Part shown: positions 9,316-39,744 of the stretch, piece after piece
How the letters are laid out: each line of letters opens with the position of its first letter
Position numbering within the stretch: the first letter of the stretch is position 1
NCBI GenBank assembly: GCA_016182105.1
Contig: JACOXZ010000011.1
Location: 1,218-65,217 of the forward strand
Direction of reading: 5' to 3'
Length of the DNA: 64,000 nucleotides
Origin: Candidatus Liptonbacteria bacterium
GTDB lineage: Bacteria; Patescibacteriota; Minisyncoccia; UBA6257; 2-01-FULL-56-20
The notes under the pieces: model-generated
Told to the model about the DNA's origin: nothing
What the model saw: the letters and a program-made list of their open reading frames with translations, nothing else
Database searches by the model: none
Position numbers and translations under genes: made by a program

Positions 9316-10191
9316 ATGACGACACAGTCGATCACGTCCGTCACAGACGGTCAGAAAAAGCAGTACCTGCGGTTCGTCGAGGACGCCGCCGACAAGGCGC
9401 TCGTGGAGGCCGTTCTCGACAAGGACGGTCTCCAGCGAGTCATCGAGAACGGGGACGACCTGCAGGCGGCCATCGTGGCCAAGCTCAAGGAGCTCTCGGT
9501 CACGAACGAGTACGCTGACGAGGAGGTCGGATCGAACTACGGTTACCTCTCGGGTTATAAGCCCAAGGGTATCGCCGAGCAGATCAAGACCCTCCGCAAG
9601 CTGTTCCCGTCGATCGGTACCGCTGACGAGCAGATCGCCAGCAAGCCGCTTCCCGCCAGTGCCGAGGGATGGTTCGCCATTCCGAGGTACGAGCTGGTCG
9701 CGGCGAGCTACAACGACGCGGTTCTCGCGGTGCTCGAGCTGACCAAGAAGGATCGCAATGGCAAGTTCTACAACTGGTGCGAGGGCCACCTCGGCCCGCA
9801 GTACCTGCACCAGACGGAGCGAGCCGTGCGTTCTCTGAAGAAGATCGGCGAAGAGCAGAAGGGTCACGACATCTTGGTCGTTGCGGCGCAGTTTGGTCTC
9901 CGTCACCGGGGCCGTTCCGTCCGTCGGGCTCGCTCCACTATGAACTCCTCGGAGTTCGGACTCGGCGCGTTCGCGGTCGGGGTCATACTGCTGACCCATC
10001 CCGAGCGTCTGAAGCACTACGATGACCTCTGGATCGACTGCGCAGGAGATGAGTACTCTCCTGACGCCGATGGCCGGTTCGACGAGGCCCCGCTCTTCGA
10101 CTTCGACGACGGCGAGGTGGAGTTCTTCACCCACTGGGTGGGCAATGCCCGCGAGTTCTATGGCTCTGCGTCGGGCTTTCTCCCGCAGTAG
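9316..10191 (+). CDS. Hypothetical protein with atypical codon usage; possible C-type-lectin-fold DGR target
   Basis: Strong RBS AAGGAG before ATG 9316; third positions almost all G/C; own promoter and terminator. Confidence 0.75.
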   Translation: MTTQSITSVTDGQKKQYLRFVEDAADKALVEAVLDKDGLQRVIENGDDLQAAIVAKLKELSVTNEYADEEVGSNYGYLSGYKPKGIAEQIKTLRKLFPSIGTADEQIASKPLPASAEGWFAIPRYELVAASYNDAVLAVLELTKKDRNGKFYNWCEGHLGPQYLHQTERAVRSLKKIGEEQKGHDILVVAAQFGLRHRGRSVRRARSTMNSSEFGLGAFAVGVILLTHPERLKHYDDLWIDCAGDEYSPDADGRFDEAPLFDFDDGEVEFFTHWVGNAREFYGSASGFLPQ

Positions 10192-10335: not shown

Positions 10336-10475
10336 ATACAGCAAATACAATTTCCGCGCGGCTATGAGTCCGAGCGGGCATGGTCTCCGACCGCGATCGG
10401 AGGAGCGCAGGACTCATCGCCAGCGAAGCCGCACGCTGGGCGGCTGAGCGGTAGCGGAAATTATATTTGCTATAT
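10336..10475. repeat. Multi-stem structured element, copy 1
   Basis: About 20 bp terminal stem with nested hairpins; homologous to 11882-12150 with compensatory changes. Confidence 0.75.
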
Positions 10476-10514
10476 TTAAGCAGATTTCGCATAATTTTAA
10501 ATATCTTTTATGAA

Positions 10515-10629
10515 TCCCGTTAGAAGCCGCGATCGCGTTGCAAATAAATTAAATATCAACCAAATGCGTAATCGTTACAATAAAATAAACCTGCAGACTT
10601 GCGCAAATCGCGATCTGCTTCTAACGGGA
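10515..10629. mobile_element. Family A inverted-repeat miniature element
   Basis: TCCCGTTAGAAGC...GCTTCTAACGGGA flanked by TGAA direct repeats within an ATGAA start. Confidence 0.88.
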
Positions 10630-11870
10630 TGAAATTTCTTTTGATTTTAGGGTCGATTTTAGTGGCGGGCGCGGGCCTCTTTTTTATATTCGGAACTTCC
10701 AAAAATTTAATCATCGAACCCAAGGAAAATCCGCAAGGTGATCTTAACCTGACGCTTCTCCGTGTTCCGGAGCCGCCGCTTCCGACCTCAACCCCGCCTT
10801 CACCGCCCACGGCCGTCGATATCACAAACCAGCCGCCGCTTCAAGACCCGCCCCGGGTAGTCAAGGGAATATATGCAACGAGCTGGTCAGCTGGGTCAGA
10901 AAATAAAATTAAATATTTACTTGACCTTATAGATAAAACCGAACTTAACGCTATCGTCATTGATATAAAAGATTATTCCGGCTACGTGGCCTACAGAACC
11001 GGCATTCCCGAAGTTAGAGCCGCAGGCGCCGAAGACCAGATTCGCATCGCAAAACCAAACGCCCTGCTCAAACGTCTTCACGACAAAAATATCTATGTGA
11101 TCGGCAGGATCTCGGTTTTCCAGGACCCGATCTTAGCCAAAGCCCATCCCGAGTGGGCACTCGTTTCTTCAAGCACTGGCAAGCTCTGGGAAGATCGGAA
11201 AGGGCTCCTCTGGATGGATCCGGCCGCAGAACCAGTCTGGGATTATAATTTGAAGATTGCTAGAGACGCCTTGACGCGGGGTTTTGACGAGATTAACTTC
11301 GACTATATTCGTTTTGCTTCTGACGGCGACCTTAAAAATATTAAATATCCGGTTTGGGACGAGAAATCTTTAAAAAGCACAGTGATTAAGAACTTCTTTT
11401 CCTATTTGCGGAAAAATCTTCCCCAAGCCAAGATCTCCGCTGATCTTTTTGGTCTTGCGACCGTGAATCAAGAGGGCTTAGGCATCGGTCAGATTATAGA
11501 AGATGCTTACGAGTATTTTGATTATGTTTCGCCTATGGTTTATCCTTCACATTATGCTCCGGGATTCAATAACTACAAAAATCCCGCCGAGCACCCTTAT
11601 GAAGTGATTCGTTATTCACTTGATGAGGCTCTTAGACGTTTAGAAAACTATTCAAGCTCCACAAATCTTGAGGTTGGTTTAAAATCCAAACTGCGGCCGT
11701 GGCTCCAGGATTTTAACCTCGGCGCGACTTATGGCCCGGAAATGGTGAGGCGTGAGATTCAAGCCGTGGAAGATTCTTTGAATAGCGCCTCGAGTTCCAA
11801 CGCTTTCGCCGGCTGGCTTCTTTGGGATCCAGCGAATGTCTATACGGCAGCGGCCCTTCAAAACCAATGA
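10629..11870 (+). CDS. Putative glycoside hydrolase (DUF4015-like TIM barrel), membrane anchored
   Basis: TELNAIVIDIKD, GFDEINFDYIRF, SPMVYPSHY, LRPWLQDF. Confidence 0.8.
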   Translation: MKFLLILGSILVAGAGLFFIFGTSKNLIIEPKENPQGDLNLTLLRVPEPPLPTSTPPSPPTAVDITNQPPLQDPPRVVKGIYATSWSAGSENKIKYLLDLIDKTELNAIVIDIKDYSGYVAYRTGIPEVRAAGAEDQIRIAKPNALLKRLHDKNIYVIGRISVFQDPILAKAHPEWALVSSSTGKLWEDRKGLLWMDPAAEPVWDYNLKIARDALTRGFDEINFDYIRFASDGDLKNIKYPVWDEKSLKSTVIKNFFSYLRKNLPQAKISADLFGLATVNQEGLGIGQIIEDAYEYFDYVSPMVYPSHYAPGFNNYKNPAEHPYEVIRYSLDEALRRLENYSSSTNLEVGLKSKLRPWLQDFNLGATYGPEMVRREIQAVEDSLNSASSSNAFAGWLLWDPANVYTAAALQNQ

Positions 11871-11881
11871 TAATGATAAAG

Positions 11882-12150
11882 AAAGCAAAGCAATTCTTTT
11901 TTTCCGCGGCTATTCGGCCGAAGCGGGCATGGCGCCCTGACTTTTGGCTTTCGGGAACCGGCGTCGCCTCTGCTCCAGCGGCAGAGTCGCGCCTGCATCT
12001 CGGCACTAAAATCCGCCTAAGGCGGAACCAAGCTTTTAGTGCCTCCGATAGCTTCCCGCAAACCAAAAGTCAGGGCGAGCGAGGCCGAATCGCCAACGAA
12101 AGTCCACGCTGGGGACTTGAGTGGTAGGAAAAAGGGAATTGCTTTGCTTT
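11882..12150. repeat. Multi-stem structured element, copy 2 (expanded)
   Basis: AAAGCAAAGCAATTC / GAATTGCTTTGCTTT termini; inner CGCCCTGACTTTTGG / CCAAAAGTCAGGGCG stem; ends at the scpA ATG. Confidence 0.78.
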
Positions 12151-12876
12151 ATGACCTATGAATTGAGTTTAGAAAAATATAGGGGGCCGCTTGATAAACT
12201 CCTCGAGCTTATTGAGGAGAGAAAGCTTGAAATTACCGAGATCAGCCTAGCCGAGGTAACTCAAGATTTTTTGAAGTATTTGAAGACTTTGAAGAGAGTT
12301 GAGGCTGCAATTTTAGCTGAATTTATCGCTGTTGCGAGCCGCCTGATCCTTATTAAATCCAGAACCCTTCTTCCTAATCTGGTGTTGACAGAAGAAGAGG
12401 AAAACGAAATAAAGGATCTCGAGGCTCGGCTTAGAATTTATAAGGAGTTAAAGCCGGCCATGAAAATCCTTGTCTTGATTTGGCAGAAGAAGAACGTCGC
12501 CTTTGGGAGACCCTATTTTTTGAGCTTGGGAAGCGGGGGCCTGGGAGCTACGAGCGAGTTTTTTTATCCCGGCAAGGAATTAAATTTAGCCGCCCTTTCC
12601 GTGAGTCTCCAAAAGATCTTTGAGACCTTGAAGAACCTAGAGTTTGAGACAGAAACCATCAAAGAGAAAATCGTTTCTGTGGAGGAAAAGATTAAAGAGC
12701 TCATAAGCCGCCTAGTTCGCGAGGTGGAGATCAGTTTCAAAAATTTATCTTCTTCCAAATCAGCAAAGGAGATCATTGCCGTCTTCTTGGCCATTCTTCA
12801 TTTGGCCAACGAGCGGCTGATCTCATTGGAGCAAGAAACCCATTTTTCTGATATACTGATAAAAAAAATAGGATGA
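12151..12876 (+). CDS. scpA: Segregation and condensation protein A
   Basis: GPLDKLLELIE, LILIKSRTLLP, FLAILHL; precedes scpB. Confidence 0.9.
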   Translation: MTYELSLEKYRGPLDKLLELIEERKLEITEISLAEVTQDFLKYLKTLKRVEAAILAEFIAVASRLILIKSRTLLPNLVLTEEEENEIKDLEARLRIYKELKPAMKILVLIWQKKNVAFGRPYFLSLGSGGLGATSEFFYPGKELNLAALSVSLQKIFETLKNLEFETETIKEKIVSVEEKIKELISRLVREVEISFKNLSSSKSAKEIIAVFLAILHLANERLISLEQETHFSDILIKKIG

Positions 12877-38568: not shown

Positions 38569-39744
38569 ATGAATGGCGTAAAGGCTAAAAAAGTGGTTTT
38601 CGTGGGACTAAGCGGAGGGGTGGATAGCTCGGTCGCAGCCCTGATTTTATCTGGCTACGCCAGATCTCGCGAAGCGAGAAAAGAAAAAGGATACGAAGTA
38701 ATCGGGGTTTTTATGCGCTGTTTCAATTTAGACGGGTGTGCCGAGCGAGATGCCGAGGACGCCAGACGGGTGGCTGGTCACCTTGGGATTCCTTTTTACG
38801 TCTGGGATTTTGAGGAGGAGTATAAGCAACGGGTGGTGGACTACATGGTTCAGGGATACGCCCAAGGGATTACCCCGAATCCGGACGTGATGTGCAATAA
38901 GGAAATCAAGTTTGGGCTCTTTTTAGAGAAGGCGCTTAAGATGGGAGGGACTCACGTGGCCACGGGGCACTATGTTCGGCTGACTGTTTCTCGGGACCGG
39001 CTGTTGACTCGCTCCAGCGGCGAGTCCCAGCCTGCGAGAGCTCCTTCGAAGCAATCAGCCTCACCAGTTTATTCGCTTTCTGTTGCTAAAGATAAAAATA
39101 AGGACCAGTCCTATTTCCTTTGGACTTTGACCCAAAAACAGTTGAAGCATTGCCTTTTTCCGATAGGAAGTTATTTAAAGTCCGAGGTGCGTGAAATTGC
39201 ACGTAAGGCCGGGCTCCCGACGGCTGATAAAAAAGATTCGCAGGGGATTTGTTTTTTAGGGAAAGTGACGCTCGGGGATTTTCTGCGAGAGTATATTCCC
39301 GAGGAGAGGGGGCCGGTTTTAAGCGTGACTGGCGAGCGGCTCGGCGAGCACCAGGGCTCTCATTTTTATACGATCGGCCAGCGCCGCGGGATTGGGATTG
39401 GCGGCGGCACGCCCTACTACGTGGCGGAAAAGGATGTGGCGACAAATACGCTCGTTGTTGCCCCGAGTGAAACTCACGAGTCGCTCTATCGAAAGGAAAT
39501 CGAGCTTACTGATGTAAATTTCATCCGGTCGGATTTACCATCTCTAATTCGCGCGAATAAGGGAATTGAGGTTTTAGCTAGAGTTCGCTACCGCCAGCCG
39601 CTTGCTCTCGCGAAACTCTATAACCTATCACCTAACACCTATCACCTCGAATTTGGCCGGCCTGTCAAATTCGTCACCCCCGGCCAGTCAGCCGTGTTCT
39701 ATCTAAAGGACGGTGAGATGTTTGGCGGGGGGATAATCACATGA
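38569..39744 (+). CDS. mnmA: tRNA 2-thiouridine synthase MnmA with in-frame insertions
   Basis: SGGVDS, TPNPDVMCN, ATGHY, KDQSYFL, DSQGICF, TPGQSAV. Confidence 0.95.
   Translation: MNGVKAKKVVFVGLSGGVDSSVAALILSGYARSREARKEKGYEVIGVFMRCFNLDGCAERDAEDARRVAGHLGIPFYVWDFEEEYKQRVVDYMVQGYAQGITPNPDVMCNKEIKFGLFLEKALKMGGTHVATGHYVRLTVSRDRLLTRSSGESQPARAPSKQSASPVYSLSVAKDKNKDQSYFLWTLTQKQLKHCLFPIGSYLKSEVREIARKAGLPTADKKDSQGICFLGKVTLGDFLREYIPEERGPVLSVTGERLGEHQGSHFYTIGQRRGIGIGGGTPYYVAEKDVATNTLVVAPSETHESLYRKEIELTDVNFIRSDLPSLIRANKGIEVLARVRYRQPLALAKLYNLSPNTYHLEFGRPVKFVTPGQSAVFYLKDGEMFGGGIIT

Follow-up and report, generated by a model that had tools for sequence, protein, structure and literature searches.

Rickettsia palindromic elements (RPEs) are described as palindromic repeats of about 150 bp that lie between genes and also in frame within unrelated housekeeping genes of a bacterium with a small genome, their mobilizer being unknown (PMC10969869). 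The same source characterizes prokaryotic MITEs as gene-less elements with inverted-repeat ends, stable stem-loops, conserved termini, and target duplications. REP and REPIN sequences, which go with RAYT (TnpA-REP), are portrayed as nonautonomous hairpins that form inverted doublets, insert into or next to one another, and are proposed to move as single-stranded DNA (ssDNA) (PMC3116915). Finally, the Ssn proteins are GIY-YIG ssDNA nucleases whose genes are flanked by NTS/SRM hairpin repeats, the SRMs being 20 to 50 nt long; the main text of that paper makes no mention of Patescibacteria or CPR (PMC11893778).

The window considered here is a stretch of 64,000 nucleotides from a 588-kb Candidatus Liptonbacteria genome (GCA_016182105.1, contig JACOXZ010000011.1). 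In it, two copies of a multi-stem motif lie on either side of a glycoside hydrolase gene. A first-pass annotation, made from the letters alone, took the motif for either a new class of noncoding RNA (ncRNA) or a mobile ssDNA hairpin. The mobile hairpin has stood, while an ncRNA tied to a gene has not: the motifs are copies of a dispersed, gene-less, Y-shaped repeat that is very probably mobile. That a convincing “new ncRNA” signal can be explained as a mobile repeat matters for motif discovery in the CPR. No published description of the repeat was found in the literature searched, subscription journals being outside its scope, and this Y-shaped repeat family of Patescibacteria (CPR) is apparently undescribed so far. 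The main text of a preprint on prokaryotic intergenic clusters (10.64898/2026.10.21.760802) is without Patescibacteria or CPR, though its supplements could hold such a cluster.

How does the Y family compare with the described systems? Like the RPEs, it is a dispersed palindromic repeat, roughly 100 to 150 bp long, that sits in frame in unrelated genes and gives a conserved peptide there. The likeness is one of description, and the Y family belongs to another phylum; it also has conserved interior loops, a variable, covarying terminal stem, a strand-specific fold, and two subfamilies, here called modules A and B′, nested on opposite strands. Unlike RPEs, it offers many covarying homologs and a defined core of two loops, follows a strand rule, and is biased in where it inserts, and with these features the movement of gene-less palindromic elements becomes testable. 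With REPINs it shares nonautonomy, inverted nesting, and a doublet, the composite of A and B′. However, RAYT/Y1 is absent here and from most carriers, and none is flanked by a Y element; singlets outnumber doublets (5 of the 13 A copies in this genome carry B′), and the Y fold is branched, spans 135 to 270 bp, and is frequent within genes. The family resembles MITEs in being gene-less, bounded by inverted repeats, and rich in stable stem-loops, but its termini are its most variable part, conserved only within subfamilies; the MITE pattern better fits the ATCCC/ACCCC-ended families of this genome. As for the Ssn system, small GIY-YIG genes are common in Y-element carriers, and the ssDNA hairpin recognition proposed below would be the same kind of activity, but no GIY-YIG gene framed by the Y element as its own repeat was found among 64 Y1/GIY-YIG loci, which are only part of the GIY-YIG matches. 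Judged by analogy, the Y family works like an RPE and, as a doublet, like a REPIN, but it falls outside both the REPINs and the MITEs.

The two copies and the fold of module A

Copy 1 (10336-10475, plus strand) is the short form of module A. A terminal stem of about 21 bp leads to a three-way junction with two arms. Arm 1 carries a purine-rich internal loop (GGGCATGGT, 10376-10384), one of two elements conserved phylum-wide, and ends in an exchangeable 18-nt tip hairpin (10385-10402), while arm 2 carries a tandem G-A and a conserved 7-nt loop, ACGCTGG (10433-10439). Copy 2 (11882-12150, plus strand) is a composite. Its module A shell (11882-11932 and 12078-12150) has a terminal stem of 23 bp and the conserved arm 2 loop (12106-12112), and a 145-bp module, B′ (11933-12077, minus strand), sits at the tip of its arm 1 in inverted orientation. 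The linker words and stems that the first-pass annotation claimed for both copies were all found, as were the short tip and the long arm. Both copies also fold into multiple stems as it proposed, at −68.3 kcal/mol for copy 1 (z −5.7) and −145.1 kcal/mol for copy 2 (z −9.3), with none of 200 shuffles as good in either case, and their common 3′ motif has two exact matches in the window, where 100 shuffles give an expectation of 0.00. Copy 1 scores 130.8 bits with model R1, a self-score, since the copies from which the model was built included copy 1. The motif had not been recognized as a known family, and Rfam indeed gave no relevant match to either copy, whether at the gathering threshold or at E values up to 10; only tRNAs reached gathering level in the window, and one weak match (E 4.7) overlaps the edge of copy 2.

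The gene between the copies (10629-11870, plus strand) does encode the expected hydrolase, a DUF4015 putative glycosyl hydrolase (PF13200, E 6e-96). Copy 2 begins 13 nt past its stop codon and ends, as had been noticed, directly before the ATG of scpA (12151-12876, plus strand), whose start thus lies at the base of the terminal stem; ScpA is encoded next. Both genes are bystanders. The window also holds a third family member, a truncated B′ (about 38978-39060, minus strand), in frame within mnmA, which encodes a tRNA methyltransferase. Two other features lie near copy 1. A hairpin of another repeat family (10512-10631; z −5.1 as DNA) separates it from the DUF4015 gene and ends on that gene's ATG; elsewhere in the genome, other copies of this second family likewise end where a gene begins, and one surrounds a small GIY-YIG gene (L199). 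Upstream, a GC-rich open reading frame (ORF) of 291 amino acids (9316-10191) has no Pfam match; similar sequences in the Atlas belong to unnamed clusters, and DUF5701 is a partial lead.

Across the family, the terminal stem of module A closes the three-way junction and measures 19 to 29 bp in most copies that allow ungapped extension. Arm 1 has an 8-bp stem, the purine-rich internal loop, and the exchangeable tip; arm 2 comprises a 2-bp helix, the tandem G-A, a 6-bp stem, and the 7-nt loop. The covariation of the stems, first seen in two copies, extends to 41 homologous module A sequences: pairing is kept in 82.8% of cells, double changes occur at 38 of the 44 pairs, and covariation scores 0.564, compared with 0.185 in shuffled and at most 0.181 in slid controls, the shuffle test being inflated by the relatedness of the copies. 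The only phylum-wide constants are the internal loop and the CGCYGG loop. Terminal stems are common to members of genome-level subfamilies, and nearly every copy has its own, the terminal arms of seven copies in this genome averaging 37% identity; particular stem variants reappear in different combinations. Core identity among seven short copies of this genome is only 77 to 90%, unlike a recent burst. Arm 2 exists in 35 distinct stem variants among 69 copies, in which G-T pairs outnumber A-C pairs by 15 to 1, which identifies the plus strand as the one that folds; the asymmetry is smaller in the terminal stem (G-T 56 versus A-C 34). Several junction positions carry no weight in this comparison, because the search pattern fixed them.

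It had also been suggested that CCAGCG pairs with the CGCTGG loop. This pairing finds no support, as the CCARYG word beside the loop covaries instead with GARYGG, the 3′ strand of the stem to which it belongs: in the same 69 copies, one pair is G-C 56 times, A-T 9 times, G-T 3 times, and A-C once, and the next is C-G 52 times, T-A 12 times, and T-G 5 times. The CCAGCG of the long arm is the same loop on the other strand, which explains its complementarity to CGCTGG. A kissing-loop model was likewise set aside. Its variable position in composites reads as five A-T, one G-C, one G-T, and three mismatches, and the five distinct composites that vary there comprise one compensatory change, one wobble, and three mismatches, so the pair is unsupported. 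Small hairpins, including a 20-bp CCTGCC/GGCAGG-type palindrome, are inserted at recurring spots within module A and tsaD (in A copies at L132, L148, L178, L182, and L421; also L230).

Module B′ and the composite

What is the 145-bp arm of copy 2? It is a second, diverged family member, inserted so that it reads on the opposite strand. On the minus strand, B′ shows the Y layout of A, with an internal loop GCTTGGT (12027-12033) and a loop CGCTGGA (11974-11980). This genome has nine standalone copies of it, and it is also found in frame within iscS, mnmA, and valS. Pair counts over 45 rows, a few of them present by chance, give G-A 70 versus T-C 23 but G-T 21 versus A-C 21. Are the two modules related? 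Model R1 gives the B′ of the window 14.9 bits, on par with plain hairpins, and because this score lacks significance, the case for homology rests on intermediates. Distant matches combine the words of A and B′ (L494, L498, L502, and the second match in L479), and at the level of sequence these make it likely that A and B′ are homologous.

The nesting is regular, B′ being inverted at the tip in 10 of 10 tabulated composites; five further rows scored as nested in the same orientation were set aside as artifacts of the regular expression, one of which (L169) was inspected directly. Over the order, the B pattern occurs in 107 of 401 genomes, an upper bound, because a reversed control also matched many genomes. 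A first census of B tips (206 rows) was dropped owing to false matches, and a repeat census gave too few tips. In two genomes, module B contains yet another structured module, about 200 bp long, nested within it (G000:C7:2674-3013, G000:C22, and L434).

Distribution, mobility, and neighboring genes

This genome contains 13 copies of module A, and G001 contains 12. When one genome per species was scanned for the exact pattern, 58 loci came up, the titles of which name a member of the Patescibacteria group in 49 cases, only a “bacterium” in 8, and Lentzea, a chance match, in 1. Within the order, 30 of 401 genomes have matches, with 1 to 13 copies each and a patchy distribution within genera, and with a covariance model built from 41 short copies, divergent members turned up in 8 of the 150 genomes searched elsewhere in the phylum. 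The search of CPR genomes proposed in the first-pass annotation yields many homologs. The copies are related, so that the counts are not independent, and L153 (the Lentzea match), L174 (a duplicate of L161), and copies at contig edges were left out of them. Four viral scans found no true copy: a strict scan had 0 matches, a first, loose scan gave 120 loci, none with the full motif, a wider pattern gave 71 loci, none confirmed by model R1, and a single match to the B pattern was a chance match within a coding region. BLAST against phages and plasmids gave no match, and in a metagenome scan with an overly loose pattern 0 of 120 loci were real.

Several observations indicate mobility. At six loci examined, orthologous sites in congeners lack the element. 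At L135 it is absent in four of four congeners (two tight junctions and two other inserts), as it is at L181, while L163, L136, and L176 are empty in the one congener examined for each. At tsaD (L160), two congeners have no element, one has a different hairpin, and one has A; a possible 4-bp palindromic target duplication at this gene is the only one resolved, the other empty sites being too diverged. Three shared intergenic sites carry the element in opposite orientations in different genomes, and L402 has the same flanks as L161/L174 with a remnant interior inverted. Related junctions host other elements as well. The tsaD gene of L229 contains a different hairpin element, in frame, where congeners have module A; its terminal stem is similar to that of module A, suggesting exchange of a core within a retained socket. 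At L458 (G124:C30:3200-3620), a junction where a congener has module A, a small gene that by eye is GIY-YIG-like is bounded by terminal inverted repeats of 22 bp.

At four coding sites, a total of six A copies continue the reading frame without a stop, lengthening TsaD, ValRS, an IscS-like enzyme, and a membrane protein by about 40 to 50 residues. Very small genomes thus tolerate insertions of about 45 residues in TsaD, ValRS, and a cysteine desulfurase-like enzyme. Being open in frame, these copies are probably translated rather than spliced. All six are sense oriented, although antisense frames are open more often (77 versus 33 of 41 × 3), and this bias may reflect tolerance of a hydrophilic peptide.

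Is the element tied to the genes that it brackets here? An ncRNA dedicated to the hydrolase or to scpA finds no support, the genes flanking the element being assorted. A list of neighbors (97 ORFs) contains assorted housekeeping genes and no recurring mobile gene. The bracketing itself proves incidental: among the 30 best DUF4015 loci in the family, A lies on both sides only in the window and downstream in two, the window included, and several other DUF4015 loci have a stop-to-start distance of only 0 to 30 bp. The Y repeats are likely to be small selfish elements rather than regulatory RNAs of a neighboring gene, because copies come and go between relatives and sit in housekeeping genes. A cis-regulatory RNA or riboswitch was rejected, since the fixed orientation upstream of one gene class that it calls for was not found.

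The folded strand and the mode of spread

How might a repeat without genes move? On balance, we think that it spreads as folded ssDNA recognized by a nuclease encoded elsewhere, though with little more than even confidence. A strand exposed in replication or DNA uptake would fold into the Y, whose two conserved loops would be read by a hairpin-cutting enzyme supplied in trans, which would nick close by. A copy would then be pasted in through repair or recombination, mostly right beside a stop codon whose gene lies on the opposite strand. In the composite of A and B′, each strand would present one active Y, as in REP doublets, and covariation could arise from selection on the fold in spreading lineages together with template-switch repair of the stems.

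Is the folding molecule DNA or RNA? Energy models separate neither the strands nor DNA from RNA, both strands folding stably. Tips are more telling: 63 distinct A tips include 29 triloops, with 13 C(GNA)G against 1 reverse complement, 1 GNRA, and no UUCG, and hairpins with GNA triloops are reported to be unusually stable in DNA (PMC13037366, PMC3201870). The folded strand is antisense to co-directional neighbors in 27 copies and sense in 15 (p 0.09), both copies of the window belonging to the sense-oriented minority. Together, the GNA triloops, the antisense bias, notably beside stop codons, and the two-strand composite favor folded ssDNA. A local GC-skew test for the replication strand was uninformative.

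The best guess for the enzyme is a small, Ssn-like GIY-YIG nuclease, by analogy to the Ssn system (PMC11893778). The choice is made because GIY-YIG genes are present in every genome checked and Y1 transposases are mostly not. Matches to GIY-YIG, UvrC-type matches included, occur in 20 of 20 genomes (5/5 and 15/15), and matches to Y1 transposases in 10 of 35 (2/5 and 8/30), with none in this genome, which is 94% complete. No cognate enzyme for the element was found in the genomes checked, and a search of 40 genomes for gene-carrying copies by way of separated 5′ halves found none; the inspected matches to the 5′ half alone turned out to be a deletion, a composite, and an insertion-bearing copy. 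Among the 64 Y1/GIY-YIG loci, one (L639) has R1 matches nearby, with copies about 100 and 400 nt away. The nuclease of L639 has its own tRNA-derived repeats, and the proximity is probably coincidence.

Alternatively, the Y could be an RNA fold, loop-receptor or ribozyme-like, of a selfish element that spreads via an RNA intermediate, with the terminal stem of about 20 bp as a processing site. Strong covariation and the G-T bias suit RNA equally well, the two phylum-conserved loops on neighboring arms resemble a tertiary contact, and the in-gene A copies are all sense. Intergenic copies, however, are mostly antisense to their neighbors, the tip loops are of DNA type rather than GNRA or UUCG, the junction itself is not conserved among A, B′, and distant members, and cleavage would presumably destroy tsaD or valS mRNA. 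An RNA element is therefore unlikely, if worth keeping in mind. A long shot is that the repeats are a phylum-wide family of natural ssDNAs that share a conserved tertiary fold and direct their own copying, the opposite-strand doublet of the two subfamilies being the active unit. If so, the two arms would dock through the CGCTGG loop and the GGCATGGT internal loop, host repair enzymes or a generic nuclease would suffice, and the repeat would be a natural mobile element akin to a DNA aptamer or deoxyribozyme; a catalytic RNA version of such a self-copying fold would be equally new.

Where the copies lie relative to stop codons bears on another explanation. An opposite-strand stop lies 22 to 27 nt from the core, that is, 1 to 5 nt from the stem, in 15 of 56 copies, against 2 with a same-strand stop. 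Standalone B′ shows 8 versus 1 (n = 24), and the bias is weak in distant members (9 versus 5 of 23). Could the element be a domesticated 3′-end signal that serves the host as a terminator, mRNA stabilizer, or processing signal and is kept beside stop codons? This tight placement and the stable folding of both strands would suit such a role. We nonetheless consider it quite improbable, given that either orientation occurs at the same site, copies lie within coding sequences, any given site is empty in most relatives, no class of gene is preferred, and it is mostly the other strand, not the structured one, that matches the mRNA. By eye, many genes upstream of stop-adjacent A copies have a GAGG/GGAG word just before the stop (for example, L133, L140, L143, L182, and L411); in this genome, 50 of 485 gene ends have the word.

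Least probable, and by our estimate very unlikely, is that the copies are inert old insertions in which template switching during palindrome repair, together with gene conversion between copies, produced the apparent covariation while selection on the fold was slight; the private terminal stems, the recurrence of stem variants in mixed combinations, and a genome full of other perfect hairpins agree with it, but template switching perfects stems and would not keep unpaired loops, a tandem G-A, and strand asymmetry phylum-wide.

Other repeats were noted in passing. Sequences that by eye are tRNA-like lie within inverted repeats of 19 to 20 bp that extend the acceptor stem (G000:C19:1763-1874, C2:8507-8609, and C8:14126-14237). 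A further region (G000:C1:13376-13855) contains at least five copies of a palindrome of 17 to 21 bp, either operator-like or a repeat array.
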